The notes under the pieces were generated by a model, which was given only the letters and a program-made list of their open reading frames with translations, was not told the DNA's origin and made no database searches. A stretch of 63,508 bases of DNA, filler included. It is 3 parts of 3 records of this genome, joined end to end, with 100 filler letters (N's around TTAATTAATTAA, not from the genome) between each part and the next. Parts side by side here need not be neighbours in the genome. Positions count along the whole stretch, not along the records: positions 23,236 to 42,685 come from SRR31156797_2481; 2 more parts are not named here. One strand, given 5' to 3'. The translations under genes were made by a program, and so were the position numbers. This document shows, piece after piece, positions 12,113 through 40,543 of the stretch; within the stretch, counting starts at the first letter, position 1, and the number at the start of each line of letters is the position of its first letter.

Positions 12113-12113
12113 T

Positions 12114-14240: not shown

Positions 14241-14241
14241 G

Positions 14242-15342: not shown

Positions 15343-15408
15343 AAGCTTTATTAGTTTTTTATAAAAATAACACTATAATCATCTGTTAATTTTGAACATA
15401 GTAAAAGG

Positions 15409-16514
15409 ATGATTATGCTTTTAACTCCTGGTCCAACAGCAGTTCCAGAGTTCGTTAGAACTGCAATGAGTGGAGAAACTCTTCACCATAGAACTCCAGA
15501 ATTTGAGAATATATTTAAAAATACAAGAGAGCTTTTATTAGAACTACTTGATATGCCAGAAGCTCTAATGTTAGCTTCAACAGGTACAGGTGCTATGGAA
15601 GCATGTGTAACAAATCTTACAACACAAAAAGCATTAACAATTAATGCTGGAAAGTTTGGTGAGCGATTTGGAAAAATTTGCGCTGCACATAATATTGAAA
15701 ATAGTGAATTAAAGTATGAGTGGAATACTCCTGCTTCAATGAAACAGATCGAAGAGACTATTAAAAATGATAGCTCAATTGATTCATTATGTATCCAAGT
15801 ATGTGAAAGTGCTGGAGGGCTACGACATCCAGTTGAAGATATTGCCAAAAGTGTAAAAGCTATTAATCCAGAGATTATGATTATTGCTGATGGAATTACA
15901 GCAGTTGGAGTTGAGAAGATTGATACAACACATATTGATGCATTGATCACAGGAAGTCAAAAAGCCTTAATGTTACCTCCAGGTTTAGCAATGATAGGCC
16001 TTAGTGAAAAAGCAGTGGCAAAGATTGAAAAAAATGCAAAAGGGTATTATTTTAATCTTGCAGCTGAAATTAAAAAGCAACAGCAAAACACTACAGCATA
16101 TACTGCTGCTACAACATTGATCATTGGTCTTGGATCTATCTTAGAAAAGATCAAAGAGATAGGGTTTGAAACCTTATATTCACAAACTGCAAAAAGAGCT
16201 GATGCAACAAGGGAAGCTCTTAAAGCAATTGGCTTAGAGATATATCCTACAACTCCAGCAAACTCAATGACTACAATCTACACAGAAAAGTCTAATGAGA
16301 TTAGAAAGATGTTAAAAGAGGAGTTTGATCTTAATATTGCAGGTGGTCAAGATCACTTAAAAGGGAAAATTTTTCGGATTAATCATATGGGATTAGTAGA
16401 AGACTATGAAGCTGCATGGGCAGTGAATAGTATAGAGATGACTTATGCAAAATTAGGGCTTCGTGCCTATGATGGAACAGCTAATAAAATATTTATGGAG
16501 AAAATGTACTCAAA

Positions 16515-16518
<4 letters not shown>
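15409..16518 (+). CDS. Class V PLP aminotransferase (alanine-glyoxylate/serine-pyruvate family)
   Basis: LLTPGPT, HHRT.EF, STGTGAMEA, GSQKALMLPPG, GGQDHLKGKIFRI.HMG. Confidence 0.9.
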
Positions 16519-18615
<2,097 letters not shown>

Positions 18616-23135: not shown

Positions 23136-23235
23136 NNNNNNNNNNNNNNNNNNNNNNNNNNNNNNNNNNNNNNNNNNNNTTAATTAATTAANNNNNNNNN
23201 NNNNNNNNNNNNNNNNNNNNNNNNNNNNNNNNNNN
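23136..23235. other. Artificial contig linker
   Basis: 44 N + TTAATTAATTAA (stops in all six frames) + 44 N; genes on both sides are truncated. Confidence 0.97.
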
Positions 23236-24609
23236 ATCAAACATTTTATAAATGTCTGATGATGGTTGGTGAATTACTACAAATATTAATTTTCCTTTTA
23301 GAGCTAATTCTCTTAAAAGGTCCATTACATTTTCTGAGTCACGGGATGAAAGACCCGAGGTGGGTTCATCAACAAAAAGGATAGAAGGTTCGCGAATTAG
23401 CTCCAGCGCAATGTTCAGGCGTTTTCTTTGTCCTCCACTAATGGTTTTGTTTAATGGAGATCCAACTTTTAAGTCTTTCCTTTCAAAGAGCCCTAAGTTT
23501 TTAAGCGTTTTTTCAACTAAACCATCTATTTCTTCTTCGCTTTTATCTTTGAAACAAAGCTTTGCGTTGTAGTATAGGTTTTGATAGACAGTTAGTTCGC
23601 TAATTAACAGATCATCCTGAGGAATAAATCCAATAACTCCTTCAATCTTTTCAGGTTCTTCATGGATATTAATTCCATTGATTTTTACATCTCCTACTGA
23701 AGGTTTTTCAAGGCCTGTAAGTAAATTGAGCAGGGTTGTTTTTCCTGCTCCTGATGCACCCATAATTCCTATGAGTTTACCTTGCTCTTCAGATAAATTG
23801 ATATCTCTTAAACCAATACCGCCATTAGGAAATGTAAAACCAGCTTCTCTTACATTAAATGTAATTCTGGATGATGTGAGATCAGCAAGAAAATGAGCTA
23901 CTACATCAGAGTAATAGACTGGCTTACCTTTAGTGAGTTTGAGCGTGCTTCCGTTAGCGAAAAGGTAAATGCTTCGGTTGTTAAGTGGCAGTCCGTTGAG
24001 AAAAATTGTTTGATTTCCTGTGTAACGCAGAAAGTAAAGGTCAACACTTTTAATTTGTAATACAAGTAGATTTCCGTCGAGGTCTTCGCTATGGATGTGT
24101 TTACTATCAGTGCCGTCTCCTTCTTTTGCTGCGGTAATTTTTAAGATGTGGGGGTTACTAATTTTCTCTGGTGCCTCTACCACAAATGATTCTGTACTTT
24201 CAAGTTCTTCGGTAAGAATGTTAAATACCTCAGCTACGGTATTTATAATGGCCATTCTTTGCTCTGTAAATTGTCTATCAGTATTAACAAGCTCAAACAA
24301 ACGCACAAGTACAACAACTTTTTGCTTTTGATTAAGTTTTTTGTTAATCTTTTTACAAATACCAAGAATCTTTACAGAATCTTTAACCGATGTAAGCTGA
24401 CGCTCTTTATTTTTATCCTCATCAATTTTGTCAGGATCAAAATCAGCGTGTTTATAAAAAAGTTTGAGATATTCTTCCACAGCATCTTTGCTGAGCTGCG
24501 AAATAAGGAAAGTTTTCACAAACTCCACTTCGCTCTCTTGCACGCCATCATCTTGTTTTGCAATAATGGCAAAAAGCTGCATTAACGCCTTTAATATCTC
24601 TTCACTCAT
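23236..24609 (-). CDS. ABC transporter ATP-binding protein with N-terminal TerB-like domain and ABCG/White-type NBD (3' end cut by contig end)
   Basis: Walker A GASGAGKTT, signature ISGGQRKR, Walker B LFVDEPTSGL, IHQPSSDIYKMFD; N-terminus LFAIIAKQDDGVQESE. Confidence 0.85.
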
Positions 24610-24651
24610 AAATTAAAAGTTACGCCTTGATAAATTGATCAGACAAAATAA

Positions 24652-25035
24652 TTAGTCAAGCGAATAGCTTACTTGCTCAAATGGTACTTCCACAATATCA
24701 GCATATTCTTCTCCAGCTTCTTCCATATCTTCGTCATCTTCAGGGAAATGCCATCTGATAAGTATTTCTTTATCATCTTCGTGCATTTCTTCAAGCTTTA
24801 ACAAGATATCAAGAATAAGCTTTGAAGACGCTGTGTTGAAGTAAACCAGTTTGAAATTGAAAACTGTCTTTTCGTTTGGTTCTTCAGCGTATCTGTCTAA
24901 CCAATCAAGAATAGGCTCATAAAAAGCGGCTACATCTTCTGGTAATGAACGTCCTGATATTTCAAAAATCTCATTTGGGGCGTCTAAAGTTACACTTGGT
25001 GTATCGTCTGTTCCTATAATCTTAATTACTTCCAT
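24652..25035 (-). CDS. SiaC-family (DUF1987) regulatory phosphoprotein
   Basis: TP.V, ISGRSLPED...FY.PI..WL, L.YFNTASSK (phosphoacceptor Thr motif), DEDMEEAGEEY. Confidence 0.88.
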   Translation of the reverse strand: MEVIKIIGTDDTPSVTLDAPNEIFEISGRSLPEDVAAFYEPILDWLDRYAEEPNEKTVFNFKLVYFNTASSKLILDILLKLEEMHEDDKEILIRWHFPEDDEDMEEAGEEYADIVEVPFEQVSYSLD

Positions 25036-25048
25036 GGTTTATGTTAGT

Positions 25049-25627
25049 TTAATTGTTTCTTGAAATTTTAGATGTAAATACAAAGAAAGAATACTCATCA
25101 TTTATTGATAAGAAGTTGTAATATAACTTATTGCCTGTTTTTTTGGCAATATCAATAAATCCAAGTCCTGCTCCACCTTTGTTCGAAAGTCTTCCTTCTT
25201 TAATTTGTTGCTTGTAAAGCATTTTAAGACCGTCTTTGTCAAGACTGTTGATTTTTTCGAGCATTTCTCTAATTTGATCAACTTTCGATTTGTTTAATAC
25301 GTTTCCAGTAGTAATGTTGTATGAATCAACATTTTTACTCAGCATAAAAATGCCCCGACCATCTTTTTTGAGGTCGTTGACATCTACGGTCTCAGCGTGC
25401 TTGCTAATGTTTTGCAAACACTCTACCATAACATGGAAAACCTTCTTCTGGGTCGACGGTCCCTCTTCGTCGGCCTCCATGTTTGTTTCTGTCAATGAGG
25501 TAAATGCTTTAGTTATTTGGTGAGTGACTTCACCTTCATAAACAAGCGTTACCTCATGGTCTTTCATAGTTTTGTAAAAACTATAGACAAATTCGAGGAA
25601 ATCTTTAATATCTACTTTGTCATCCAT
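25049..25627 (-). CDS. SiaB-family GHKL protein kinase
   Basis: VECLQNISKH, TGN, GGAGLGFIDIAKK; adjacent to the SiaC-family gene. Confidence 0.85.
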   Translation of the reverse strand: MDDKVDIKDFLEFVYSFYKTMKDHEVTLVYEGEVTHQITKAFTSLTETNMEADEEGPSTQKKVFHVMVECLQNISKHAETVDVNDLKKDGRGIFMLSKNVDSYNITTGNVLNKSKVDQIREMLEKINSLDKDGLKMLYKQQIKEGRLSNKGGAGLGFIDIAKKTGNKLYYNFLSINDEYSFFVFTSKISRNN

Positions 25628-25651
25628 AACAGTTATTTTGTTTGAAGGATA

Positions 25652-28282
25652 TTAAAACTCTATACCTATTAGTAACACATCATCAATTTGTTTGTTATCT
25701 CCTTTCCATTTCTGGAAGTCTTTTTCAAAATAATCATTAAACTTAGCCATTGAATATTCTGCATTGGCAATTAATGCCTCTCTTATTCGTTTAGCTTGAT
25801 ATTTTCTTTTGTCAGGGCCACCTACCTGGTCTGGCAATCCATCTGAGAAAAAGAATATCTTGTCGCCTTGTTCCATCTGCAATTCGTAATTCTCAAAATC
25901 TTTTTCCGGCTTTTTACCCAATGGTATACCTCCAATGGCTTTTCTATTTCCTTTATATTCAGTCAACTCACTATTTCTTAATAGATAAAGTGGCCTGTGT
26001 GCACCTGCGTAATGCAGATGATTTGTTTTCAAGTTTATTTTACAGAAAGCAATATCCATTCCATCTCTAGCATTTGCACCTGCTTTATCCTGTCGCAATG
26101 CGGATCTTACACCTACATGAAATTTATCTAATATTTGTCCTGCATTCATTTCTTCATCATGGTCTACTACATTATTTAAAATGAAATATCCAATGAAGGA
26201 AAGTAGAGCGCCCGGTACACCATGACCAGTACAGTCAACAGCAGCAATGTAAATATAATCTCCTTTTTCAAAGAACCATGGGAAATCACCACTTACTACA
26301 TCTCTTGGTTTATAGAAGATGAATGATTTTGGCACAAACTCTTGTATATGAACCGTATTAGGCAGTAATGATTTTTGAATTCTTTCGGCGTAATTAATAC
26401 TTTCTGTAATATTTTTATTTTTTTCCTTTATCTCATTCTCAATTTTCTTTTGCTCGGTGATGTCATGAGCAACAAAAAGAATTGTTTCCAACTCACTTTC
26501 TTCGTTAAATTCAGGTATTGTGCTAACCTGCATTATTCTATCTCCAAAATTAGTTGGAAAAACAGTTTCGTAGTTTTGTTTTTGAGTTGATTTTACGGTG
26601 TCTTTAATGGCTTCAGTAAAGAAGTTTTTAATGTCTTCTTTAAACTCAACTTCATGCAGTTTTTTAGTGACAATTGTTTTGTTATCGACGCCGGTAAATA
26701 TCTTTACAATTGGATTGGCGTAGAAGAATTGACCCTCTTCGTTCAACCGCATGATCATATCGGGAGAGTTTTCTGAAAGGGCTTGCATTTTACTTTTCAT
26801 GCGTTCCTCTTTCTCTGCTCTTTTACGCTCTGTAATATCTTGAGAATTAAGGATAATTCCAGCAATGGCTTCATCTTCAAGCAGGTTTCTTCCTGTTGTT
26901 TCAAGGTATATTTTTTTACCTGCTTTGTTCATATAAGTATATTGAATTACGATGGTTTCTTCGGGCTCATCCAATAGCTTCTTGAACATATTTTGTAATT
27001 CTCTCGTTCCTTTTGCTGTAAGTCGATCAAGGTCTTTACCTTCCATCATTTCCTGCACAGTAAAGCCATAAATATTAGCTACTGAAGGGCTTATGTATTT
27101 AAGGTGTAGTTCTTGATCATAAATAGATATAACCTCTGATGCATTTTCAAGTAATGAATGCAATCTTTTTTGTGCATTTTCAACTTCGGTAATTTGTTGT
27201 TCCAGTTTGGAATTTGATCGCTCAAGTTCTTCATGCGTCGCACGCATTTCTTCAGCATTTTGTCTCAATTCTTCTTCGTTTTCTTTAAGCTCTTCAGTCA
27301 TTTCCTGAGAATCACGAAGTAGTTTTTCTGTTCTTTTATTAACCTTGAGGTTGAAAAGTGTTCTGGCAATTACATCACTAAGTTCGGTAAGGAAATTTAT
27401 TGTTAGGTCGGATATGTCTTTGTCAAGTGATGCAAATTCTAATACACCCTGTAGTTTTTCATCTGTTATAAGAGGGACTACAAGTATAGAGTTTGGTTTT
27501 TGCTCTTTTAGTAACCCGGAAGTAATTGTTAGGTAGTCTTCAGGTATTTCTTTTCTATAGATAATATCCATCTCAAATGCAGCTTGCCCTACTAAGCCTT
27601 CACCAATTTTAAATTGTTGATTCACATACTTTCTTCGGTTGTAGGCATAAGTTGCTTTATTTTCAATGATATTTTCTTCTTCGTCATAAATATAAAATGC
27701 TCCCTGCACAACTTTAATATAATCAATCAAATTTACAAGCGTATCATAGGCAAGTTCATCAAGATCATTGTGCAGCCTTAGAATGGTAGCTATTTTATCT
27801 TTACCGGCGGTTATCCAGCTTCTTTCAGATTCTTTCTTAGAAGTTTGTAGTAGATTATTCTTCATCCTGATCAGGGATTTTCCAAGTAAATCCTGATCAT
27901 CAATAGCGGCTTCTTCTATATCAAGTTTCCCCTCACCAATTTGTTTGGCAAAGTATGCGTTTCGTTGTATGATTGATTTCTTCTCTTCGAGATCGTTATC
28001 GTATGATTTTTCCAGATTTTCAATCCATCTTTCCAGTCTGTAGCCAATTATTCCAAGTACAATTGGGAATAAATCAAAAATAAATACAAGGTTATTGTTT
28101 TTATGCATTTCAACTATTCCAAAAATGTTAAGTTCATAGTTGTTTGAAATGAACTCAATCATCCAGATAGATAGCGGAAAAACAAGACTAACTAAGACTA
28201 AACCCGTGGGAAACCTGGATTCAGTTCCGTAGCCAAGTAAAAACTTCCTTATTTGTATGCCTCTTATTTGATTACTCTCCAT
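25652..28282 (-). CDS. Membrane sensor phosphatase: TM-HAMP-like-GAF-coiled coil-PAS-PAS-SpoIIE/PP2C (SiaA analogue)
   Basis: GAF FKIGEGLVGQAA; PAS ends QDITERK and HDITEQK; PP2C VSGDF, DCTGHGVPGA, DGMD, SDGLPDQ, IDDV. Confidence 0.9.
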   Translation of the reverse strand: MESNQIRGIQIRKFLLGYGTESRFPTGLVLVSLVFPLSIWMIEFISNNYELNIFGIVEMHKNNNLVFIFDLFPIVLGIIGYRLERWIENLEKSYDNDLEEKKSIIQRNAYFAKQIGEGKLDIEEAAIDDQDLLGKSLIRMKNNLLQTSKKESERSWITAGKDKIATILRLHNDLDELAYDTLVNLIDYIKVVQGAFYIYDEEENIIENKATYAYNRRKYVNQQFKIGEGLVGQAAFEMDIIYRKEIPEDYLTITSGLLKEQKPNSILVVPLITDEKLQGVLEFASLDKDISDLTINFLTELSDVIARTLFNLKVNKRTEKLLRDSQEMTEELKENEEELRQNAEEMRATHEELERSNSKLEQQITEVENAQKRLHSLLENASEVISIYDQELHLKYISPSVANIYGFTVQEMMEGKDLDRLTAKGTRELQNMFKKLLDEPEETIVIQYTYMNKAGKKIYLETTGRNLLEDEAIAGIILNSQDITERKRAEKEERMKSKMQALSENSPDMIMRLNEEGQFFYANPIVKIFTGVDNKTIVTKKLHEVEFKEDIKNFFTEAIKDTVKSTQKQNYETVFPTNFGDRIMQVSTIPEFNEESELETILFVAHDITEQKKIENEIKEKNKNITESINYAERIQKSLLPNTVHIQEFVPKSFIFYKPRDVVSGDFPWFFEKGDYIYIAAVDCTGHGVPGALLSFIGYFILNNVVDHDEEMNAGQILDKFHVGVRSALRQDKAGANARDGMDIAFCKINLKTNHLHYAGAHRPLYLLRNSELTEYKGNRKAIGGIPLGKKPEKDFENYELQMEQGDKIFFFSDGLPDQVGGPDKRKYQAKRIREALIANAEYSMAKFNDYFEKDFQKWKGDNKQIDDVLLIGIEF

Positions 28283-28288
28283 ATAATT

Positions 28289-29050
28289 CTACTTATCTGT
28301 CTCTGAATAGTGTTTGGCCAATTTGTTCAAGATTGTATTTAGTTTCTCAAGTTTTTTGTCATTTAGTTCTTCAAAAAAGGCCAATTCGGTTAATGCCACC
28401 GTTTTGTCCTTATGAACCATTGGTGCTATTAGAATAAGCACCGGCTTTCTTTTGCCTAACCCTGAAATAACTTCTGTATAATTTTCAGGTAGTTCTTTAA
28501 GCACAATTTGTTTTTTATCCCGTGCAGCCTGCCCTGTCAATCCTTCTCCAATCTTAAACGGCTGTGGTTCTTCTTCTCCATAATAGGCATAAGTACTTAG
28601 AACTTGAAAAGCATCTGTTTCTTTGTCAAACTTATAAACCAATCCTTGAACAATACTTAATTCTTTTCCTAGTTGTGCAAGTAATTTCTCCGATAATGTT
28701 AAAGGGTTTGTTTCCTTTGATAACTGAGCAATTAATTTGTCAAATTCTTCTGCTTGTTGCTGCTTTTCGTCCTCTTCTTCTGTGTTTTTTTGGTTTATAA
28801 TGTCGTTTATCGTGATTTCCTGACGTGTCTCAGTCTCTTTTTCTTTAAGCAGGTCCTTTGTTTGTTTATAAAGATTTGTTCCAATTGTATAAATTCTAAT
28901 AATCCCTAAAATGATTACTAATGTCAGTCCTGCCAAAATATAATTGAATCCGAAAAAGTTTAAGCTTACAGCATAGGCTCCAATTAAGGCTAAAATGACA
29001 ATAACCAGGTAAATGGAAAGAAAAGATCTATATTTCTCAATTTGATTCAT
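28289..29050 (-). CDS. Two-TM GAF-domain protein without output domain
   Basis: Two TM helices, then GAF (YAY...FKIGEGLTGQAA...ISGLG...P). Confidence 0.8.
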   Translation of the reverse strand: MNQIEKYRSFLSIYLVIVILALIGAYAVSLNFFGFNYILAGLTLVIILGIIRIYTIGTNLYKQTKDLLKEKETETRQEITINDIINQKNTEEEDEKQQQAEEFDKLIAQLSKETNPLTLSEKLLAQLGKELSIVQGLVYKFDKETDAFQVLSTYAYYGEEEPQPFKIGEGLTGQAARDKKQIVLKELPENYTEVISGLGKRKPVLILIAPMVHKDKTVALTELAFFEELNDKKLEKLNTILNKLAKHYSETDK

Positions 29051-29060
29051 AATTGCGAAA

Positions 29061-29627
29061 TTACTGTAATTTTAATAAAAATCGTATTATTTCGTCCGTT
29101 TTCATAACATGGTCAATATTTGTAGCCTGCAATGATGCATTTGTCATTGTAGGTACTTGACACTCTTTTGGATCCTGCACTATGGTTAAGCCTCCATTGT
29201 CTTTAACTTTTTTAATTCCCATTGCGCCATCCTTGTTGGCCCCGGATAGAATAATACCAATTAGTTTCTGTTTATAATTATATGATGCTGAGATAAATGA
29301 TAAATCTATTGAAGGTCTGGAATGATTAACCGAATCTTCTGTAGATAAAGCAAATTTATTCCCGAGTTCAATGTACATATGGTAATTGGCTGGTGCTAAG
29401 TAAATTATGCCGGATTTTATTGGATCCTTGTCATCCGGTTCACGTACTGGCATACCAGCTTTTATTGAAAGAGCTTCTACAAAGCCAGACCGCACATGTT
29501 TTAGCCTGTGTAGGCATAAAAACACAGGTAATGGGAAACTTTTAGGTAATGCTGCAATAATGCGTGTAATTACCTGAAAACTTCCTGCACTTCCTCCTAT
29601 TATGACTGCTTTGTACTTTGGTGTCAT
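29061..29627 (-). CDS. cheB: Stand-alone CheB-type glutamate methylesterase (no receiver domain)
   Basis: IGGSAGS, LHRL, YLAPANYH, RPSID, ILSGANKDGA; Ser-His-Asp triad present. Confidence 0.9.
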   Translation of the reverse strand: MTPKYKAVIIGGSAGSFQVITRIIAALPKSFPLPVFLCLHRLKHVRSGFVEALSIKAGMPVREPDDKDPIKSGIIYLAPANYHMYIELGNKFALSTEDSVNHSRPSIDLSFISASYNYKQKLIGIILSGANKDGAMGIKKVKDNGGLTIVQDPKECQVPTMTNASLQATNIDHVMKTDEIIRFLLKLQ

Positions 29628-30455
29628 TTATTCAGCTCGTTTCTTATATATTTTTTCTTCTTTATTTAGGACATTTACTTTACTAAAATATGATGTGCTT
29701 TCTAAAGATTCTTTACTTCCAATGGAAATTACTCCACCTAACAAAGTCGACTTTAAAAGCTTTTCAACAACTTTATCTTGCAAAGATGGATTGAAGTATA
29801 TCAGCCGATTTCTATAAATAACCAGATGGTACCCTTTTAAAGGCTCATCAGTTAAAAATGAATATTTTCTGAATTCAACATTTTCAATCAACTCACTATT
29901 CATTTTGGCTTTTACTCCTTCAACTTTATAATATGCGCTTAGACTTGAAATATCTGAGAATCGTTTATAATTTGCTTCACCGATTTCTATCTTTTTCAAA
30001 TCATAAAGTCCACCTTTTTTTATTTGCTCAATTCTCAGGTCACTAAGACTTGTTGCTAATACTTTTGCATGCTTTAGCATACCTGTTTCTTTGAGCATTA
30101 TAAGCAAGGTATATAAATCATCACCACTGGTTACGCCGGGGACTAATACCTTGAAATCTCTATTTTTATATAAGTCAGGCAAATATTTATCCCGTATATC
30201 TCTCCAACTGGAAGGATCGCGAAACATTTCTGTTGTGTCTACTAATCCCTGACTTAAATACTTTTCAAATAAAAGCTGATTATTCTCGATGTTCGATATG
30301 AAATCAACAATACTTGAATAATTATTTTCATTCATGACATACAACAACCTTCTTTTGAAGGCAGTTAAGGCAAAACCCATAAAGTCAAGGCCATAAACTT
30401 CCTTTATAGCTCCAATAACTTTTTTAGTATCTACTATGCCTATATCGTATATCAT
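29628..30455 (-). CDS. Degenerate CheR-family methyltransferase
   Basis: TEMFRDP and RN.LIYF retained; GVTSGDD, ATSLS and IYRN replace GCSxGEE, ATDI and FCRN. Confidence 0.8.
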   Translation of the reverse strand: MIYDIGIVDTKKVIGAIKEVYGLDFMGFALTAFKRRLLYVMNENNYSSIVDFISNIENNQLLFEKYLSQGLVDTTEMFRDPSSWRDIRDKYLPDLYKNRDFKVLVPGVTSGDDLYTLLIMLKETGMLKHAKVLATSLSDLRIEQIKKGGLYDLKKIEIGEANYKRFSDISSLSAYYKVEGVKAKMNSELIENVEFRKYSFLTDEPLKGYHLVIYRNRLIYFNPSLQDKVVEKLLKSTLLGGVISIGSKESLESTSYFSKVNVLNKEEKIYKKRAE

Positions 30456-31298
30456 TTAATAAGCTTTCTTTTTATAAACTCCTTTTGTCCTTTCAAAACT
30501 ATTTGACACCGGTCCCAAAATACTTTCATGGGCGCCAAGTATTAGATAACCATCTCTGTATAAGTTATTGCTAAATAGTTCCAGTACTTTATTTTGGAGG
30601 TTGTTGTTAAAATATATGATCACATTTCTACAGAAAATAATATCAAATTTTGAGTAGAATATATTTTTATCGTTTACAAGGTCATGTTTTCTAAATACCG
30701 TTTTATCTCTCAGGAATTTTTTCATTTTGATAGTATCCTGAGTTTTATCGATGTCGAAATATTTTTCGTACGGAACATCTTTAACGTCTTCGTAGTTGTA
30801 TGGGTTTTCTTTAATAACTTTGTCAAAATTGTCCAGATATTGAAGATTAAATCGGTATCTATACTCACCTTCTTTGGCTTTCTCAAGCATGTCGGTGTTA
30901 ATGTCTGTTGCAAAAACTTTGGCTTTATCAAACAAGTCTAGCTCTGAAAGTAAAATTAACATTGAGTAAATTTCCTGCCCGCTGGAGCATCCTGCATGCC
31001 AAATGAAAATTGATTTGTTTTTGCGGAACTTTGGTAAGATTCTATATTTTAGTGTGATCCAAAGTTCAGGATCTCTGAACAATTCGGTGGTATTGACAGT
31101 AATGTCTTTTATAATCCGCTCAAGAAATTCTTTATCTCTACCAATCTTACTGATCAATTCAGTCATGTTCATTCTTGAGTCGCTAAGAATTTTATCAATT
31201 CTTCGCTTAAAAGAACGCTCTGAATAATCAGAAAAGTCGTATGTAGACACGCTTTTTATGGCATCGATAAACTTATTTACCTCTTCTTCTGTGATCAT
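30456..31298 (-). CDS. cheR: CheR-type glutamate O-methyltransferase
   Basis: VNTTELFRDP, IWHAGCSSGQE.YS, ATDIN, FDIIFCRNVIIYF, LGAHES. Confidence 0.92.
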   Translation of the reverse strand: MITEEEVNKFIDAIKSVSTYDFSDYSERSFKRRIDKILSDSRMNMTELISKIGRDKEFLERIIKDITVNTTELFRDPELWITLKYRILPKFRKNKSIFIWHAGCSSGQEIYSMLILLSELDLFDKAKVFATDINTDMLEKAKEGEYRYRFNLQYLDNFDKVIKENPYNYEDVKDVPYEKYFDIDKTQDTIKMKKFLRDKTVFRKHDLVNDKNIFYSKFDIIFCRNVIIYFNNNLQNKVLELFSNNLYRDGYLILGAHESILGPVSNSFERTKGVYKKKAY

Positions 31299-31329
31299 AA
31301 AGGCTTAACCAGAATTATGTTGGTTTATA

Positions 31330-31358
31330 CAAAAATAACCAAGTACGTTTCAAATGTA
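31330..31358 (-). promoter_or_regulatory. Bacteroidota -7 promoter elements upstream of the cheR operon
   Basis: Minus-strand TATTTTTG (31330-31337) and TACATTTG (31351-31358) both match TAnnTTTG. Confidence 0.55.
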
Positions 31359-31478
31359 ATAATTTATTTTAAAAAAATGACCGGGTTTATTTTACCGTTT
31401 TTGTGTTATTTGCTTTTTTTTAGGCTTAAATGAACTTTAGTTTAATATGGGAGTCCCTAAATGTTATTACAACTGTTG

Positions 31479-32522
31479 TTAATCAAATAATATTTTTATT
31501 GTCACAGGATTATGATCACTGTTTTTGAAACCTAAATCCATGGTCGTTGTTTCAATAGCTTTTAGGTTTGGTGATAGTAAGAAGTAGTCAATAATGGTTT
31601 TATATGAATTTTTATTTAAAGGTTTATCCAGACCCCTATTAGTAGGGTGATTTGGATCGTAAGCAAATGTCCAATCTTCAGGTAAAAAATCCCCTGGAAC
31701 TGTTTTTGGTATAAATTTGTCATTTTTGGGCTCGCTTCCGAAATGATTTAATTTAATGCCTTCTGGGACTTGATTCCAATCAGCTCCAACTATTACATAA
31801 TGACCTTTCTGATATTTTTTCAGCATCCATTCTTTTAATTGATTCATTTGCATTGCTCGCAAATTTCCATCATCATAAGCGGTATTGTGCGAATTTACAA
31901 CAAAAAGTGTGTCTGTTTCATTTATTGGAAATGCTAAACTGGTGAAGCACCGGTCTAACATAAAGAGAGACTTTGGCCAGGAATAGTTTCCTTTAAATTG
32001 ATGTCTGATTATGTTGGCGGGTGTGTATTTGCTTCCGGTTAAAATACCGGAGTTCACTTTTCCCAATGGGTCGCCCAGGGGTATTGGTATGAATTTAACT
32101 TTATAGTTATAGGTAAAATACCAAAAGTGACTATTTACCCCATTTTGAATTTTTTCTTGTTGGTTGACTTCATAAGAGCGTTTGGAATCAATATCGACTT
32201 CTTGCAAAAGGATAAGATCATTTTGTTTTTGTGATTTAAGAAAATTTAGAATTGCCGAAAGATTAGACTGGGCAATTCCTTTTGTGGTTTGCATATTTTC
32301 CCCTCCGTCATAAAAAAAGTCCATATCTGCACCAAGTCCGGCATATCCTATATTCCATGTTAGAATTGATAATGTATCTTGTTTTAGCCAGTCCGTTTTA
32401 TTTTCTTCTAAGACTATTTTTTCTATGGGTTTGTAATCAGAAAATGTTGCCCAGGCTAGAAAAGCACCAAAAGCAATTATAAGCGTAATAATCGTTTGAA
32501 TAAGTATTCTTACAATTTTCAT
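31479..32522 (-). CDS. Endonuclease/exonuclease/phosphatase family protein with N-terminal anchor
   Basis: LTWNIGY, LLQEVD, GADWN, IDYFL.S, SDHNPV. Confidence 0.88.
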   Translation of the reverse strand: MKIVRILIQTIITLIIAFGAFLAWATFSDYKPIEKIVLEENKTDWLKQDTLSILTWNIGYAGLGADMDFFYDGGENMQTTKGIAQSNLSAILNFLKSQKQNDLILLQEVDIDSKRSYEVNQQEKIQNGVNSHFWYFTYNYKVKFIPIPLGDPLGKVNSGILTGSKYTPANIIRHQFKGNYSWPKSLFMLDRCFTSLAFPINETDTLFVVNSHNTAYDDGNLRAMQMNQLKEWMLKKYQKGHYVIVGADWNQVPEGIKLNHFGSEPKNDKFIPKTVPGDFLPEDWTFAYDPNHPTNRGLDKPLNKNSYKTIIDYFLLSPNLKAIETTTMDLGFKNSDHNPVTIKILFD

Positions 32523-32582
32523 GATTTATAAATTTTCAGAACATCTAAGATAGTATTTTTCATACTTAAATAATAAAAATAG

Positions 32583-32590
32583 TATCTTTG
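32583..32590 (+). promoter_or_regulatory. Bacteroidota -7 promoter element for purQ
   Basis: TATCTTTG matches TAnnTTTG, about 35 nt before the start. Confidence 0.55.
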
Positions 32591-32625
32591 ACCCGAAATT
32601 AATGGTATCAAAAAAAGCATTACTT

Positions 32626-33321
32626 ATGAAGTTTGGAGTAGTAATATTTCCGGGATCCAATTGTGATCATGATATGATTTATGTGTTAAATAAAAAGCTT
32701 CATCATGAGGTGGTTGAGCTTTGGCATAAAGATGATGATTTGCAAAATGTAGATGTTGTCGTTCTACCAGGTGGGTTTTCATATGGCGATTATTTACGGT
32801 CCGGTGCTATTGCCAGATATTCACCAATTATGAAAGAGGTGATAAAGTTTGCTGATAATGGAGGATATGTATTTGGAATTTGCAATGGATTTCAGATATT
32901 ATGCGAAGCAGGATTATTGCCAGGTACATTATTACATAACTTAAACCAAAAGTTTATTTGCAAAAACACATTTATCGTACCCGATAATCATGAAAGTGGT
33001 TTTAATATGTATGTTCCCAAACAACCATTGAATATCCCTATTGCCCATGGTGAAGGACGCTATTTTGCTGATGAAAAAACCATACAGGAATTGGAGAATA
33101 ACAACCAGGTGCTTTTCAGATACTCAAATGAAGAAGGAATTGTGAATGGTGAAGGTAACCCCAATGGTTCGGTAAATAGTATTGCAGGAGTTTGTAATGC
33201 TTCAAAAAACGTTTATGGAATGATGCCTCACCCCGAAAGAGCTGCTGACGAAGAGCTTGGGAATGAAGATGGAGCTCTTATATTACGTTCGTTTATTAAT
33301 TTTGTGAATGAAAGAAAGTAA
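32626..33321 (+). CDS. purQ: Phosphoribosylformylglycinamidine synthase subunit PurQ (likely start 32626)
   Basis: FPGSNCD, PGGFSYGDYLR, GICNGFQIL, PIAHGEG, GMMPHPER. Confidence 0.97.
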   Translation: MKFGVVIFPGSNCDHDMIYVLNKKLHHEVVELWHKDDDLQNVDVVVLPGGFSYGDYLRSGAIARYSPIMKEVIKFADNGGYVFGICNGFQILCEAGLLPGTLLHNLNQKFICKNTFIVPDNHESGFNMYVPKQPLNIPIAHGEGRYFADEKTIQELENNNQVLFRYSNEEGIVNGEGNPNGSVNSIAGVCNASKNVYGMMPHPERAADEELGNEDGALILRSFINFVNERK

Positions 33322-33328
33322 TTAACGC

Positions 33329-33886
33329 ATGCGCAGATTACTAACTTACTTTTTCCAGGGACTCATTGCTACTGCACCTATAGTCCTCACTATTTATTTA
33401 ATCTATGTAAGCTTCGTATATATTGACGGACTGCTCCCTTTTGAAATTCCAGGATTAGGCTTATTGGTAATAGTAATTTCTATTACGATAATAGGTTTTA
33501 TCGTCAATTATGCCATTAAAACACCCTTATATTATTACGCTCAAAAATTATTAGATAGGTTACCACTTTTTAAAGTTATTGTAACCTCAATTAAAGATTT
33601 ACTTAGCGCATTTGTAGGTAAAGAGAAAAAGTTTGAGTATCCGGTCAGAGTATTACTTGATGAGCATAATCAAATTGAAAGACTAGGGTTTCTTACTCAA
33701 AAAAGCCTTGATTTTATCGGTATCGAAGAGGGTAAGGTAGCTATTTACTTTCCGTCATCATATGGTATTTTAGGTGAATTATTTATAGTTCCGATTGATA
33801 GAGTGAAGCCAATGGATACTAAAGCTGCTGAAATGATGAAATTCATTATTAGTGGAGGAGTTTCCAAGACAACCATTTCTCAATAA
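33329..33886 (+). CDS. DUF502 family membrane protein
   Basis: F.QGL...P...T, IPGLG, LGFLT, MKFIISGG. Confidence 0.82.
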   Translation: MRRLLTYFFQGLIATAPIVLTIYLIYVSFVYIDGLLPFEIPGLGLLVIVISITIIGFIVNYAIKTPLYYYAQKLLDRLPLFKVIVTSIKDLLSAFVGKEKKFEYPVRVLLDEHNQIERLGFLTQKSLDFIGIEEGKVAIYFPSSYGILGELFIVPIDRVKPMDTKAAEMMKFIISGGVSKTTISQ

Positions 33887-34069
33887 CAGATAGATAACAC
33901 TTTAAAGTGTAGATATTCAATACCTTTGATTGGTTTTTATTATTTTAGCTATTGTTATGTAATAAAGATCAGAAAAATCTGTTATTTTTACAGTTTAATG
34001 TAACCAAACCTAAATTTTTTCGTCTTATGACGGGAATCTGAATTTTTAAAACCCAATAAACCCAATAAA

Positions 34070-35416
34070 ATGATACGTAAAACCCTTATTACTATTCAAT
34101 TTGTTTTTCTTATTGTTATTGCTCAAGCCCAGGATCAAAAAGAATGGAGCCTGGAGAATTGTGTAAACTTTGCGCTGGAAAATAATCTTGCCTTAAAGAA
34201 CCAAAATCTTACGGTTAGCATGTTAAATAATTACCGCCAAATGGCAAAATTTAATAGACTACCCGGAGTTAGTGCATCAACTAGTTTACAACGTCAGTTT
34301 GGGCAAACTTTTAATCAGGCAAAACTCGCCTTTGTTGACGAAAATAAGAATCAGTTTAACGCAAGCATCAGAGCAAATGCTCAGGTATTTAATGGATTTA
34401 AATATAAGTATGATATTCAAAAAACGACATATGATGTGCAAGCAGCTCAGGCTGATCTTGATGTACAAGCCAATGATCTGGCTCTAAATATTGTCAACTA
34501 CTATCTTCAAATTTTATATAACCGTGAGCAATTGAATGCTGCTGAAATTCAATTAGAAGTAACAAATAAGCAAATTGAGCGAACTGAAGCCCTTGTAGTG
34601 GCAGGAAGTACAGCCAAAGGTGATGTGTTGGAGCTTAAAGCTCAAGCTGCTGATGAAAAAGCTCAGATTACAAATTACGCAAATTTAGAAAGACAGGCTC
34701 GTATTAATTTAAAACAAGCTATGAATTTTTCAGGAGATAATATGGCTGTTTTAAATCCCAAAACTATTAATGCTGATAGCTTGTATCTTCAATTGCCTCC
34801 AATAAATGATGTTTACTTATCGGCATTGGAGCATTTACCGGAGATAAAAGCTGCACAGGCGCGTATTAATTCAAGTGCTCAGTCAATTGATATTGCAAAA
34901 GCAGATTATTATCCAACATTAGATGTTGGTGCTTCTCTTTCTACTTTTTATGATCAATCATTTCCAGATCCTGAAGACCCTGCCTCATCATATACTTTCT
35001 TTGAACAGGCTGGTGACTTTAGAACTGCTGTTGCATATGTTCAGCTTTCAATCCCTATTTTCAATAAAATGCAGGTGAAATATAATGTTCAGAATGCTCA
35101 AATTAGTTATGAGCAAGCTCAAACAGATGAACTTATCACACAACAGAATATTTATAAAACTATTGAGTCTGCCCACAGTGACGCTCAAAGTGCCCACAGA
35201 AGTTTTACTGCTGCGAAAGAGTCCTTAGCTGCCAGTGAGGAGTCATTTCGTTATGCTGAACAAAGATTTAATGCGGGTTTAATTAATTCTGTAGACTACA
35301 ACCTGGCAAAGTCGAATTTATCTAAAGCTCAGGTGGCGTTACTTAATGCACGTTATGAGCTTATATTTAAGGTGAAAATTCTGGATTTTTATATGGGTAA
35401 ACCACTCAATCTGTAA
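34070..35416 (+). CDS. TolC-family outer membrane efflux protein
   Basis: Signal peptide; WSLENCVNFALENN, YYPTL, SIPIFN, RFNAGLINSVDY. Confidence 0.88.
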   Translation: MIRKTLITIQFVFLIVIAQAQDQKEWSLENCVNFALENNLALKNQNLTVSMLNNYRQMAKFNRLPGVSASTSLQRQFGQTFNQAKLAFVDENKNQFNASIRANAQVFNGFKYKYDIQKTTYDVQAAQADLDVQANDLALNIVNYYLQILYNREQLNAAEIQLEVTNKQIERTEALVVAGSTAKGDVLELKAQAADEKAQITNYANLERQARINLKQAMNFSGDNMAVLNPKTINADSLYLQLPPINDVYLSALEHLPEIKAAQARINSSAQSIDIAKADYYPTLDVGASLSTFYDQSFPDPEDPASSYTFFEQAGDFRTAVAYVQLSIPIFNKMQVKYNVQNAQISYEQAQTDELITQQNIYKTIESAHSDAQSAHRSFTAAKESLAASEESFRYAEQRFNAGLINSVDYNLAKSNLSKAQVALLNARYELIFKVKILDFYMGKPLNL

Positions 35417-35435
35417 AAGTCAATTGCTTTTTTTA

Positions 35436-35443
35436 TAATTTTG
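35436..35443 (+). promoter_or_regulatory. Bacteroidota -7 element for tsaB
   Basis: TAATTTTG 16 nt upstream of ATG. Confidence 0.5.
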
Positions 35444-35459
35444 CCCAAAATCAATTATC

Positions 35460-36152
35460 ATGGGCAAGATTTTAAGTATTGATACAGCCACGGATATTTG
35501 TTCTGTGGCTTTGGGATATGATGGTGAGCTTAGAGATAAGATGGAATCTGCTGAAGATCGATCTCATGCCAAGCTTTTGACGGTCTTAATTCAGGATATT
35601 TTAGATAAAAATGGATTGCAGGTTTCAGATCTTGATGCAATTGCTGTAAGCGAAGGACCAGGTTCATATACGGGTTTGCGAATAGGAGTTTCTGCAGCCA
35701 AAGGGATGTGTTACGTAAGCAAATTACCTTTAATTGGCATATCTACGCTTAAAACAATTGCAGCAGGTTATTTGAAGAATAATGATGTTTCAAATGAAAC
35801 TGTATTGCTTCCAATGCTTGACGCCAGGCGTATGGAAGTATACTACGCTGAATACGATAGTTTATTAAATGAGAAAATTGCAGCTACTCCACTTGTAGTT
35901 GATGAAGATTCTTTTAGAGAGTATGATACGAAAGATGAAGTTGTTTTTTTAGGAAGTGGTGCTCTAAAATGCAGCGAAATTTTATCATTTAAAAATGCAA
36001 CTTATATTACTGATATACTTAATAAGGCAGAGTTTATGGTAGATATTGCGGAGCAAAGCTACAGCATTAACAAATTTGTTGATGTGGCATATTTTGAGCC
36101 AGCATATTTAAAGCCATTCATAGCGACACAACCTAAAAAGAAGTTTTTCTAA
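35460..36152 (+). CDS. tsaB: tRNA threonylcarbamoyladenosine biosynthesis protein TsaB
   Basis: ILSIDTAT..CSVA, GPGSYTGLRIG, DARRMEVY. Confidence 0.95.
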   Translation: MGKILSIDTATDICSVALGYDGELRDKMESAEDRSHAKLLTVLIQDILDKNGLQVSDLDAIAVSEGPGSYTGLRIGVSAAKGMCYVSKLPLIGISTLKTIAAGYLKNNDVSNETVLLPMLDARRMEVYYAEYDSLLNEKIAATPLVVDEDSFREYDTKDEVVFLGSGALKCSEILSFKNATYITDILNKAEFMVDIAEQSYSINKFVDVAYFEPAYLKPFIATQPKKKFF

Positions 36153-36184
36153 GTCGCATATAACACAGATTATTACAAATTGTA

Positions 36185-36192
36185 TATTTTTG
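36185..36192 (+). promoter_or_regulatory. Bacteroidota -7 element for efp
   Basis: TATTTTTG 17 nt upstream of ATG. Confidence 0.5.
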
Positions 36193-36209
36193 CAAAAAAC
36201 TAAATAAAA

Positions 36210-36779
36210 ATGGGAGATACTACAGATATCAAAAACGGATTGACTATTAATTATAAAAATGGTCTTTATGCAGTGGTTAGTTTTCAGCATGTGAAACCTG
36301 GAAAAGGTCCTGCATTTGTGCGTACTAAATTGAAAAATATTGAGACAGGTAAGGTAATTGACAATACATTTTCCTCAGGTGCAAAACTTGATATAGTTCG
36401 TATTGAAAGACGTCCATATCAATATTTATATAAAGATGACACTGGTCTTATTCTGATGAATAATGAAACCTATGAGCAAATTCCTGTTGACGAAAAACTT
36501 ATAACAGGGTATGAATTCCTTAAAGAGGGAATGAATGTTGAAGTTGTATTTCACGCGGATAAAGAAATTCCTCTATTTGCTGAATTACCAATGCATGTTG
36601 AAATGGAAGTAACCTATACCGAACCTGGTGTGAAAGGTGATACTACATCTACTACTGTTATGAAACCTGCTACAATTGAGACAGGTGCCGAAGTAAATGT
36701 GCCACTATTTATTAACATTGGAGATAAGATTAAAATTGACACAGCTACCGGAGCATATGTCGAAAGAGTTAAATCTTAA
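36210..36779 (+). CDS. efp: Elongation factor P
   Basis: HVKPGKGPAFVRTKL, TEPGVKGDT, KPA.IETGA. Confidence 0.97.
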   Translation: MGDTTDIKNGLTINYKNGLYAVVSFQHVKPGKGPAFVRTKLKNIETGKVIDNTFSSGAKLDIVRIERRPYQYLYKDDTGLILMNNETYEQIPVDEKLITGYEFLKEGMNVEVVFHADKEIPLFAELPMHVEMEVTYTEPGVKGDTTSTTVMKPATIETGAEVNVPLFINIGDKIKIDTATGAYVERVKS

Positions 36780-36825
36780 TTTGCATTCAGCTTAAAATTG
36801 TATAAATTGCATGTAAATTCATATT

Positions 36826-38055
36826 ATGGCAAAAAAAGCATCTTTGCATAGGCTGCAGTTTTGTAATTTTAAGCTGGATTTTTTGCTTAACGTTACCCTT
36901 GCTATTAATGAAAATTTGCCTATCCAGGAATTGCTGGATAAATTCGTAAATATTCTTCGTGAAGATCTTAACATTGGAAAACTTATTCTTTACAAGTACA
37001 ATGAAAAATGGGAAACCTTAATTTACGATGGTGTTTCTAAAAAACTTGTGGATGATCTTTCAGTTGAGAATGATTTACTTTATTACAAACAAATTACAAA
37101 TCTCACCACTACTTTAAATACCAATCTAAGTCAATTTGATGTTATAATTCCTGTTTATCATAAAGACAGAGCGTTAGCATACCTTGTGATTGGAGACATT
37201 GATGAAGAGAGAGTAGGTGTTAGTCCAACCATTAAACACTTACATTTTATTCAAACATTAGCCAATATTATGGTTGTGGCTATTGAGAATAAAAGGTTGT
37301 ATAATCAAAACTTGCATCAAAAGGTTTTGCATAAAGAGCTTGAATTAGCATCAAAAATGCAAAACATGCTGATTCCAACACATGCCTCATTACCGAATAA
37401 TGATCAGATAGAAACTGCTGCTTACTATTTACCGCACTTTGAAGTAGGTGGTGATTATTACGATATAATTAAGTTAAACAGCCATAGTTATGGTTTTTGT
37501 GTGGCTGATGTATCCGGAAAGGGAATCTCAGCAGCCTTGTTAATGTCTAATTTTCAGGCTAACCTAAGAGCTTTGCTGACTGAGAAAACTTCTATGAAGG
37601 AGGTTGTGATTAATTTGAATGAACGAGTAATGAAAAGTGCTAACGGTGAAAAGTTCATTACATTATTCATTGGTCGTTATAATGCAGAGGAACATCGTTT
37701 AGAATATGTTAATGCAGGGCACAATCCGCCAATATTCTTCGAACCGGGTGCTTATCAAATTTCGTATTTAAAAGTGGGATGCACAGGAGTTGGAATGTTT
37801 GATGAATTGCCAAGTATACAGGTAGGAGAAGTTTATACAACTCCAGGCTCCAGACTTTTACTGTACACCGACGGAATGGTTGAGCTTGAAAATGAAAATC
37901 AGGTTGAATTTGGCACAGGTATTATGGAGCATGAATTGGTCCAAAAGCAGTCAATTGAGGATATCGTAAATAAAACAATTGATCAATTAGATGAGCATAA
38001 AGGTGCAGGGAAATATGACGATGACGTTACCCTATTTGGGTTTGAGTTTCATTAG
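36826..38055 (+). CDS. RsbU-like PP2C/SpoIIE phosphatase with N-terminal GAF-like domain
   Basis: VGGDYYD, ADVSGKG, NAGHNPP, YTDG, DDVT. Confidence 0.88.
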   Translation: MAKKASLHRLQFCNFKLDFLLNVTLAINENLPIQELLDKFVNILREDLNIGKLILYKYNEKWETLIYDGVSKKLVDDLSVENDLLYYKQITNLTTTLNTNLSQFDVIIPVYHKDRALAYLVIGDIDEERVGVSPTIKHLHFIQTLANIMVVAIENKRLYNQNLHQKVLHKELELASKMQNMLIPTHASLPNNDQIETAAYYLPHFEVGGDYYDIIKLNSHSYGFCVADVSGKGISAALLMSNFQANLRALLTEKTSMKEVVINLNERVMKSANGEKFITLFIGRYNAEEHRLEYVNAGHNPPIFFEPGAYQISYLKVGCTGVGMFDELPSIQVGEVYTTPGSRLLLYTDGMVELENENQVEFGTGIMEHELVQKQSIEDIVNKTIDQLDEHKGAGKYDDDVTLFGFEFH

Positions 38056-39505: not shown

Positions 39506-39510
39506 AATTT

Positions 39511-40521: not shown

Positions 40522-40543
40522 TTTGGCGAAATTTAAGTTTTTG

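Follow-up and report, generated by a model that had tools for sequence, protein, structure and literature searches.

A conserved gene block joining CheR/CheB, a Sia-type partner switch and an ABCG-like exporter in Salinivirgaceae-like DNA

Closest described systems

In the partner switches RsbU/RsbV/RsbW and SpoIIE/SpoIIAA/SpoIIAB, the phosphorylation of a small switch protein is set by a PP2C phosphatase and a GHKL-type kinase. The same switch logic is encountered in the gene cluster described here, which lies at the left end of contig SRR31156797_2481, the middle one of three contigs in a 63,508-nucleotide stretch of DNA (the window), and which links a CheR/CheB methylation module to a SiaABC-type switch and to the gene of an ABCG-like exporter, the latter being cut by the contig end. 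The phosphatase of the cluster likewise gives a SpoIIE match in Pfam, but in RsbU/V/W and SpoIIE/AA/AB the output is a sigma factor and the switch protein a canonical STAS protein instead of a DUF1987 protein. In the reading preferred here, to which we assign a probability of roughly one half, the whole arrangement would represent one signalling-to-export device, in which a methylation-tuned Sia switch controls the pump.

The SiaABCD system of Pseudomonas aeruginosa provides the nearest comparison. According to the available text of one report, SiaC is phosphorylated at Thr68 by SiaB, which blocks its binding to SiaD; SiaC is structurally related to STAS proteins, and DUF1987 proteins in general are suggested to modulate adjacent proteins (PMC8457831). 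Phosphatase, kinase and DUF1987 protein of the cluster each find their best match in the Protein Data Bank (PDB) among the Sia counterparts, the gene order phosphatase-kinase-SiaC-effector is the same, and residues N67/T68 are shared. In contrast to SiaABCD, however, an ABCG-like pump takes the place of the diguanylate cyclase SiaD (78 of 79 loci), and the phosphatase receives its input through a GAF-coil-PAS-PAS arrangement and is flanked by cheR and cheB.

This latter feature is reminiscent of proteins of the methyl-accepting coiled-coil (MAC) type, a class reportedly defined by Wuichet and Zhulin in 2010. As far as the available parts of two reports go, MAC1 systems are characterised by a fused CheB-CheR protein and MAC2 systems by separate CheB and CheR proteins (PMC6943060; bioRxiv 10.1101/2022.05.07.491037). 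The available text of the second report describes MACs as combining receptor and kinase functions, as never characterised experimentally, and as present in some organisms without other chemotaxis systems (bioRxiv 10.1101/2022.05.07.491037). Like a MAC2 system, the cluster contains a separate cheR and a receiver-less cheB beside a sensor that is no methyl-accepting chemotaxis protein (MCP; 53 of 54 full loci) and that carries a glutamate-rich heptad coil, which in turn resembles the coil of CheB-CheR fusion kinases. Unlike in the receptor-plus-kinase MACs of that partly available report, a PP2C phosphatase supplies the output here and leads into a Ser/Thr partner switch, and two CheR paralogues are encoded, one of them divergent. 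A canonical chemotaxis pathway is not encountered on the contig. As the preliminary description of the locus had claimed, the 19.4-kb contig encodes no MCP, CheA, CheW or CheY: none of its nine other open reading frames (ORFs) of at least 90 aa matched MCPsignal, CheW, CheA-type, Response_reg or GGDEF domains at E ≤ 1e-8. The claim that CheB lacks a receiver is equally confirmed, its 188 aa giving a CheB_methylest match and none to a receiver.

With regard to the output, two regulated ATP-binding cassette (ABC) transporters can be compared. The STAS protein MlaB attaches to MlaF, an ABC ATPase, via a Thr-centred surface, which provides a solved precedent for such a contact, and the phosphomimetic exchange Thr52Glu weakens this binding, while in the available text of the same report MlaB has no known kinase or phosphatase and its phosphorylation is unproven (PMC7367683). 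MlaFEDB and the cluster have in common a small STAS-like protein with a conserved Thr together with an ABC transporter, the contact between SiaC and the pump being a proposal by analogy. Unlike MlaFEDB, the cluster encodes a dedicated kinase and phosphatase next door, and its transporter is ABCG-like. The exporter Rv1747 of Mycobacterium tuberculosis, as described in the available parts of two reports, carries an N-terminal FHA module, is encoded in an operon with the Ser/Thr kinase PknF and is regulated by phosphorylation (PMC3138270, PMC3908365). It resembles the present pump as an exporter with a cytoplasmic N-terminal module beside Ser/Thr signalling genes. There, however, a Hanks-type kinase phosphorylates the transporter directly and the transporter's own FHA domains read the modification, whereas the pump of the cluster has a TerB-plus-domain-2 module (FHA in 0 of 37 members) and the signal would arrive via a diffusible phosphoprotein.

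No description of this architecture was found in the literature searched, which did not cover Wuichet and Zhulin 2010. MAC-type CheR/CheB, the SiaABC switch and ABCG-like pumps are each known singly; judged from sequence, what appears to be new is their combination, with a PP2C phosphatase as putative methylation-adapted output and a pump as presumptive SiaC effector.

Gene block, Sia-type switch and exporter

The preliminary description had placed eight genes on one strand with gaps of 0-42 nt, and this is borne out by ORF calls and domain searches, according to which eight minus-strand ORFs follow each other at distances of 0, 0, 10, 6, 24, 13 and 42 nt in the order from cheR1 to the ABC gene. 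Related loci were sought in one genome per species with a profile made from 37 aligned SiaC homologues. At least 600 stretches matched, at least 450 of them encoding a relative, and the best 80 (SiaC identity 72-98%) were analysed, with gene counts per locus obtained by phmmer searches of the window proteins against all ORFs of these 80 loci. The loci derive from Salinivirgaceae, Tenuifilaceae, Williamwhitmania, Perlabentimonas, Acetobacteroides, Acetofilamentum and other Bacteroidales as well as from a few metagenome-assembled genomes labelled Rikenellaceae, Cyclobacteriaceae or Chlorobiota; carriers of the cluster include Bacteroidales of rumen, gut, sediment and bioreactor origin.

Gene order, the loss of which in relatives had been named beforehand as an outcome contradicting the proposal, turned out to be kept: the full set from cheR1 to siaB is present in 53 of the 54 loci with at least 9 kb of upstream sequence, the exception being L061. 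Counted gene by gene, siaB occurs in 75/75 evaluable loci, the PP2C phosphatase gene in 68/68, and cheB together with the gene of a small transmembrane (TM)-GAF protein in 58/60 (exceptions L059 and L061). In 78 of 79 evaluable loci, belonging to several families, siaC has the ABC gene as its next neighbour, starting 24-200 nt past it on the same strand; the one exception, L059, is a decayed locus. Beyond the ABC gene, two further same-strand genes, for a lipoprotein and a secreted protein, are found in 64 of 65 loci. Co-occurrence of cheR, cheB and this ABC family with SiaB/SiaC genes, for which a neighbourhood survey had been suggested, is therefore a regular property of the best 80 of at least 450 SiaC loci. 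A point weighing against the proposed scheme is that, with this choice of loci, the conservation holds within one subfamily and does not amount to a survey of all SiaC genes.

The conserved unit comprises 10-11 genes, namely cheR1, an optional extra sensor gene, cheR2, cheB, TM-GAF, sensor-PP2C, siaB, siaC, TerB-ABCG, lipoprotein and secreted protein, of which the window holds the first eight in the short form without extra sensor. Its borders follow from recurrence: cluster genes are present in 60-80 of the 80 loci and flanking genes in only 1-24, so that the unit spans cheR1 to the secreted protein. As the arrangement recurs in 53 of 54 fully evaluable loci while the flanks turn over, it is not a product of chance. 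All eight window genes are under purifying selection as judged by the ratio of non-synonymous to synonymous substitution rates (dN/dS), the values being rough because dS is near saturation. Taken together, the block very probably constitutes one functional unit. Two loci deviate in an informative manner: L043 carries cheR1-cheR2-cheB-TMGAF in inverted orientation downstream of the last gene (7194-10322), whereas in L061 cheR2-cheB-TMGAF is missing, two extra sensors are encoded, and a glutamate pair of the phosphatase that is discussed below has disappeared.

Two side observations were made at the borders of the block. In L073, a second, divergent stand-alone SiaC-like gene (3013-3396, minus strand) lies head-to-head with cheR1, beside lptB-, tatC- and kpsF-like genes. 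In L016, a tyrosine-integrase gene (15286-16524, plus strand) directly follows the cluster, which hints that the downstream border of the block can serve as an insertion site.

The kinase gene of the switch (25049..25627, minus strand; 192 aa) belongs to the SiaB family according to NF038262 (170.5 bits versus a cutoff of 85) and PF19788 (E = 1.4e-42); the best PDB match of its product is 6KKO chain A (E = 2.4e-13), and the motif 'GAGLGxxDIA' is conserved. The strict SiaB equivalog model NF038264 gives 84 bits versus a cutoff of 225, and among the NCBIfam models it is only the SiaB family model whose cutoff is reached, the equivalog cutoffs for SiaA, SiaB and SiaC lying higher than the scores obtained. 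The adjoining siaC gene (24652..25035, minus strand) encodes a 127-aa phosphoprotein of the SiaC family (PF09345, E = 2.2e-41, 140.8 bits versus a cutoff of 24.5), which aligns without gaps with P. aeruginosa SiaC (6KKO_C), 'FNTASS' being placed over 'LNTSSI'. N67 and T68 (Thr68 codon at 24832-24834) are invariant in the 37 aligned homologues, and the dN/dS of siaC, 0.006-0.011, is the lowest in the cluster.

In more distant SiaC loci, the genes beside siaC differ. Among four such loci from a plasmid collection, a diguanylate cyclase gene adjoins siaC or lies one gene past it in three: in Azospirillum, siaC is followed by a histidine kinase gene and then by the cyclase gene, and Caballeronia and Burkholderia sp. 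RPE67 have a diguanylate cyclase as well, while the siaB-siaC pair of Bernardetia is without adjoining same-strand output gene. The TerB-ABCG pump is present in none of these four loci. The earlier claim of an ABCG-like exporter in the siaD position is thus confirmed for 78 of 79 of the close relatives, with a diguanylate cyclase in that position in three of the four distant loci. The Caballeronia plasmid locus (L085) additionally carries the gene of a 1316-aa hybrid kinase with CheB-domain, HisKA, HATPase, REC, GAF and HWE (5317-9267, minus strand), divergent from the nearby PP2C-SiaB-SiaC-GGDEF operon (10049-12870, plus strand). Since this kinase gene is absent at the equivalent Burkholderia sp. 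RPE67 locus, its link to the Sia locus was treated as coincidence.

Of the exporter gene (23236..24609, minus strand), the window holds the 5' part, giving 458 visible residues of the roughly 1015-1150 aa found in relatives. They comprise a TerB-like domain (aa 8-137, E = 1.8e-6), a domain of about 95 aa without family assignment (aa ~150-245) and, following it, the nucleotide-binding domain (NBD; ABC_tran, E = 2e-32), in which Walker A, Q-loop, signature, Walker B and H-loop are all readable. The match to TIGR00955 (E = 5e-55) reaches 187 bits versus a cutoff of 736, so the pump is ABCG-like but stands outside this subfamily. In full-length relatives, ABC_tran (268-419) precedes ABC2_membrane (565-753), i.e. 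the NBD comes before the transmembrane domain (TMD), and towards the C-terminus about 230 hydrophilic residues lead up to a last TM helix. PDB matches are to Cdr1/Pdr5 (PDR/ABCG) and to ABCG1, the latter over query residues 20-497 covering NBD and TMD (E = 7e-37). The N-terminal module is well conserved, with 68% mean column identity over pump residues 1-270, and a profile of this N-module detects 990 representative proteins (50%-identity clusters) at E ≤ 1e-3. Among the best 150 of these matches, the architecture N-NBD-TMD-CT (CT, C-terminal part) is common to all 57 that measure 900 aa or more, and every protein of at least 330 aa runs into the NBD, from which it follows that the TerB-plus-domain-2 module is specific to the pump family; apparent N-terminal extensions of N-module proteins are longer linkers inside the TerB domain. 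Domain 2 appeared FHA-like by eye, which was not upheld, as Pfam FHA matched 0 of 37 members at E ≤ 10 and no other recurring family was found.

Of the two genes past the pump gene, one specifies a lipoprotein (about 305 aa) that contains a lipobox cysteine, the other a protein of some 145 aa carrying a signal peptide. Both are without Pfam family, and a profile of the lipoprotein gave only chance-level matches in the PDB (E ≥ 0.016). The preliminary description had suggested looking beyond the ABC gene for a GGDEF gene; in relatives none is found there, its place being taken by these two genes.

On these grounds it seems rather likely that SiaC, in one of its forms, binds the cytoplasmic N-module or the NBD of the pump and thereby gates it. 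The best-surviving alternative, which we regard as unlikely but not negligible, holds that the Che/PP2C/SiaB/SiaC module targets something elsewhere, examples being a sigma or anti-sigma factor, a diguanylate cyclase and the gliding or secretion machinery, and that pump and partners are co-transcribed cargo or a neighbouring operon. No SiaC-pump fusion occurs among the best 150 N-module representatives, and the N-module profile finds no sequence relative in the PDB, SiaD included, so that similarity to the SiaC-binding stalk of SiaD is not detected; both findings count for this alternative and against a direct contact. The Bernardetia locus, moreover, implies that SiaC targets need not adjoin. 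The position of the ABC gene speaks for the contact, as it lies 24-200 nt past siaC in 78 of 79 loci while the flanks are turning over. The pump furthermore has a dedicated cytoplasmic N-module limited to its own family, and the block contains no other cytoplasmic candidate since both downstream proteins have signal peptides.

Methylation enzymes and sensor phosphatase

The first gene of the cluster, cheR1 (30456..31298, minus strand), encodes a CheR-type protein-glutamate methyltransferase of 280 aa (PF01739, E = 7.6e-42, plus CheR_N). Its S-adenosylmethionine (SAM)-binding motifs 'WHAGCSSGQE', 'ATDIN' and 'CRNVIIYF' align with Bacillus subtilis CheR 5FTW and are near-invariant in 56 orthologues, and dN/dS is about 0.04. 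The second gene, cheR2 (29628..30455, minus strand; 275 aa), had been called a degenerate cheR, which holds true in view of its weaker PF01739 match (E = 1.5e-19), altered SAM motifs and faster divergence. Compared with 5FTW, CheR2 reads 'ATSLS' for 'ATDID' and 'PGVTSGDD' for 'AACSTGEE', so that the motif aspartate is lost and the glycine-rich loop altered; it also lacks an 11-residue segment, and its mean identity to orthologues is 39% versus 64% for CheR1. CheR2 is therefore probably catalytically impaired or non-catalytic. As the gene is nevertheless kept in 53 of 54 full loci under a dN/dS of 0.11-0.15, it is a retained paralogue and not a pseudogene.

The third gene, cheB (29061..29627, minus strand), encodes a methylesterase/deamidase without receiver (188 aa; PF01339, CheB_methylest, E = 4.3e-49, residues 8-183). 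In alignments with 1CHD and 3SFT, the positions of the catalytic triad are occupied by Ser, His and Asp in this protein too, and dN/dS is 0.02-0.06. Next to it, the TM-GAF gene (28289..29050, minus strand; 253 aa; GAF_2, E = 4.9e-8; TM helices 10-28 and 38-56) encodes a protein paralogous to the phosphatase's N-terminal portion, with 35% identity between the two GAF domains (E = 5e-17). TM-GAF belongs with the che genes and not with the phosphatase, because L043 has it displaced together with them and L061 has lost it along with cheR2-cheB. An extra sensor gene, missing from the window locus, is located between cheR1 and cheR2 in 30 of 53 full loci. Its products of 620-914 aa consist of TM segment, periplasmic region, HAMP, GAF, coil, PAS and PAS and have no output domain; the periplasmic region comprises about 140 aa, as in L016 (2140-4518).

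The sensor phosphatase itself (25652..28282, minus strand; 876 aa) combines two TM helices (27-45 and 65-83), a HAMP-like segment, GAF (172-309), a heptad coiled coil, two PAS domains (371-612) and a SiaA-type PP2C domain (SpoIIE, 674-875). The PP2C domain has SiaA (6K4E, E = 7e-33) as its best PDB match, with the metal-binding motifs DVVxGDF, DCxGHG, DGxxDQ and DD aligned. The SiaA model NF038263 matches residues 608-874 with E = 2.4e-50; the score of 172 bits remains below the 700-bit equivalog cutoff because the catalytic domain alone matches. SpoIIE/PP2C is the output domain of the phosphatase, and no HisKA or HATPase_c match is obtained for it in Pfam.

The coiled coil (aa 318-378; nt 27149..27331, minus strand) lies between GAF and the first PAS domain. 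It is built of xEELxxx heptads, and the segment 'NEEELRQNAEEMRATHEELE' is near-invariant in 64 sequences. Within it, EEMRAT (aa 344-349; nt 27236-27253) contains the predicted methyl-accepting site E344-E345. EExxA[ST] is the classical chemoreceptor methylation-site pattern, and EEMRAT is the only match to it in the phosphatase that is located in the coil. Of 64 orthologues, 62 retain its EE pair, the exceptions being L023 (ED) and L061 (LQ), and a homologous motif, 'RQNMEE[LM]xATQEE', is present in the coil of the extra sensor in 31 of 32 sequences, while TM-GAF has no [EQ][EQ]xx[ASTG][ASTG] site. L061 is also the sole full locus without cheR2-cheB-TMGAF; it has Leu-Gln for Glu-Glu with the rest of the coil conserved, which makes it a suggestive natural variant. 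A further hint comes from a comparison with 47 longer relatives of the window CheB, 16 of which are CheB-CheR fusion proteins: the phosphatase coil matches 15 of these 16 and none of the 31 others, and 0 of 60 shuffled queries gave a match. The matched coil of the fusion proteins, e.g. 'NEELQxxNEEL', is located about 150-250 residues past the CheR domain.

It appears quite probable from these sequence features that CheR1 and CheB reversibly methylate E344/E345 of the phosphatase and, where present, the homologous site of the extra sensor. Several points have to be set against this assignment. The pattern [EQ][EQ]xx[ASTG][ASTG] occurs twice in the 876-aa phosphatase versus about 0.75 times as estimated from composition; as the site count is about what composition predicts, the weight of the methyl-acceptor reading lies on conservation and context. 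The coil similarity is weak, with E-values of 1e-5 to 1e-2 in the 47-sequence set and a high composition bias, and the shuffled-query control is lenient in that shuffling destroys heptad periodicity, which makes the coil match supportive but not decisive. L061, finally, is one locus that keeps a nearby cheR-like gene, and one of its extra sensors keeps EE.

The corresponding alternative is that the substrate of CheR1/CheB is not the phosphatase but MCPs encoded elsewhere, the extra sensor alone, TM-GAF, or glutamates of the ABC protein or SiaC; in the case of MCPs elsewhere, che genes and Sia switch would simply happen to be clustered. In its favour, although the window locus does without an extra sensor, cheR1 adjoins that sensor in all full loci that have it (30 of 53), the EE site taken by itself is statistically unremarkable, and the search for MCP and CheA was confined to the window contig. 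We nevertheless consider it improbable. The contig encodes no MCP, CheA or CheW, and Bacteroidales are not flagellated and usually have no chemotaxis genes. The che genes stay with the block in 53 of 54 loci and still adjoin it when rearranged, as in L043; site and coil of the phosphatase show next to no variation and are similar to the coil found in CheB-CheR fusion kinases, and TM-GAF offers no candidate site.

The preferred scheme, a methylation-tuned Sia switch controlling the pump, can then be outlined as follows. The membrane-anchored GAF/PAS phosphatase of the SiaA type would act as a 'methyl-accepting coiled-coil' protein. CheR1 would methylate and CheB demethylate Glu344/345 in the coil between GAF and PAS, thereby resetting the phosphatase output in the sense of an adaptation, and the methylation module would be assisted by CheR2 and the short TM-GAF paralogue in a non-catalytic or auxiliary role. 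Methylation would thus tune the dephosphorylation of phosphorylated SiaC (SiaC-P) against the SiaB kinase, phosphatase and kinase together determining the phosphorylation state of Thr68 in SiaC, in the manner of Pseudomonas SiaABC. In one of its forms, by analogy that without phosphate, SiaC may bind the TerB-plus-domain-2 module or the ATPase of the pump and switch transport on or off, and the pump may act on an envelope substrate in concert with lipoprotein and secreted protein.

The reverse direction of signalling, in which the ABC protein is a sensor whose TerB module or hydrophilic insert detects a ligand or the envelope state and, with lipoprotein and secreted protein, informs the Sia switch, could draw on TerB-like domains being proposed sensor or ligand-binding modules, on the insert of about 230 aa before the pump's last TM helix and on phosphatase and TM-GAF having almost no periplasmic loop, so that the window locus is without obvious extracytoplasmic sensor, but is very improbable given that all ATPase motifs are intact, that the pump gene follows the switch protein in the effector position of known Sia systems and that GAF and PAS already provide cytoplasmic inputs.

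Surroundings of the cluster and biological meaning

Upstream of cheR1, a 180-nt intergenic region (31299..31478, minus strand) is the sole long gap bordering the cluster and likely represents the operon promoter region. Two copies of TAnnTTTG, the Bacteroidetes -7 consensus, lie within it at positions -60 and -39 relative to the ATG; the frequency of this motif in relatives, 0.51 per 250 nt upstream of cheR1 versus 0.15 in coding sequence, is weak evidence. Sigma-70-type promoter and terminator sites are not commoner than in shuffled sequence, DNA repeats are at chance level, and an Rfam scan of the window gave 0 matches. As for anti-phage defence systems, PADLOC returned only generic ABC-ATPase matches to the NBD and none for the other nine proteins. 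Exact-sequence matches for seven window proteins were not present in the protein collection searched.

Directly upstream of cheR1, on the same strand, lies a gene for a membrane-anchored protein of the endonuclease/exonuclease/phosphatase (EEP) family (31479-32522, minus strand). A homologue is found in 19 of 80 loci, often in the same position, and it may be a loosely linked neighbour. The same contig carries a second SpoIIE/PP2C gene (36826-38055, plus strand; 409 aa), next to which no SiaB- or SiaC-like genes were seen.

The three contigs of the window (1-23135, 23236-42685 and 42786-63508) are joined by spacers N44-ttaattaattaa-N44 at 23136-23235 and 42686-42785, and composition and best homologues mark them as unrelated. 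The G+C content of the third contig is about 50% versus about 33% for the other two, and tetranucleotide profiles correlate at 0.73-0.92 within contigs, compared with 0.34-0.51 for A versus B and about 0 for A versus C. The middle contig appears Salinivirgaceae-like: its SiaC shares 99% identity with a protein named Salinivirga sp., and the best homologues carry the name Salinivirgaceae (order Bacteroidales). The first contig appears Campylobacterota-like, judged by an adenylosuccinate synthase that shares 79-80% identity with proteins named Campylobacterota, Arcobacter or Arcobacteraceae. It also encodes the flagellar proteins FliS, FliD, FlgK, FlgH, FliL, FlgI and FliM (window 3799-15342), which, located on a separate, unrelated contig, are no context for cheR and cheB of the cluster. 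The third contig begins with a CRISPR-associated gene (PF08798, 42809-43519).

For the biology of the Bacteroidales, a tentative and on balance doubtful extension of the scheme would be that they re-use the CheR/CheB 'memory' for history-dependent control of a Ser/Thr switch, with SiaC gating an ABCG-like envelope machine composed of pump, lipoprotein and secreted protein. The function of the cluster is probably of ecological relevance, as it is widespread, with at least 450 SiaC relatives, 990 N-module clusters and carriers from varied habitats. Irrespective of the outcome, the operon bears on three questions. Concerning the role of CheR/CheB in bacteria without chemotaxis, it offers the predicted site E344/E345 and the natural variant L061. 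Concerning DUF1987/SiaC targets outside Pseudomonas, it provides a conserved non-cyclase candidate. And the switching of ABC transporters by a phospho-regulated STAS-like protein, which the available text of the MlaB report proposes but leaves open (PMC7367683), becomes testable with this operon. Should the extension sketched above hold true, it would constitute the first use of a chemotaxis-like sensory adaptation in transport or envelope export, the first instance of an ABC transporter having its own STAS-like regulator under the control of kinase and phosphatase, and the first SiaC target other than a cyclase.

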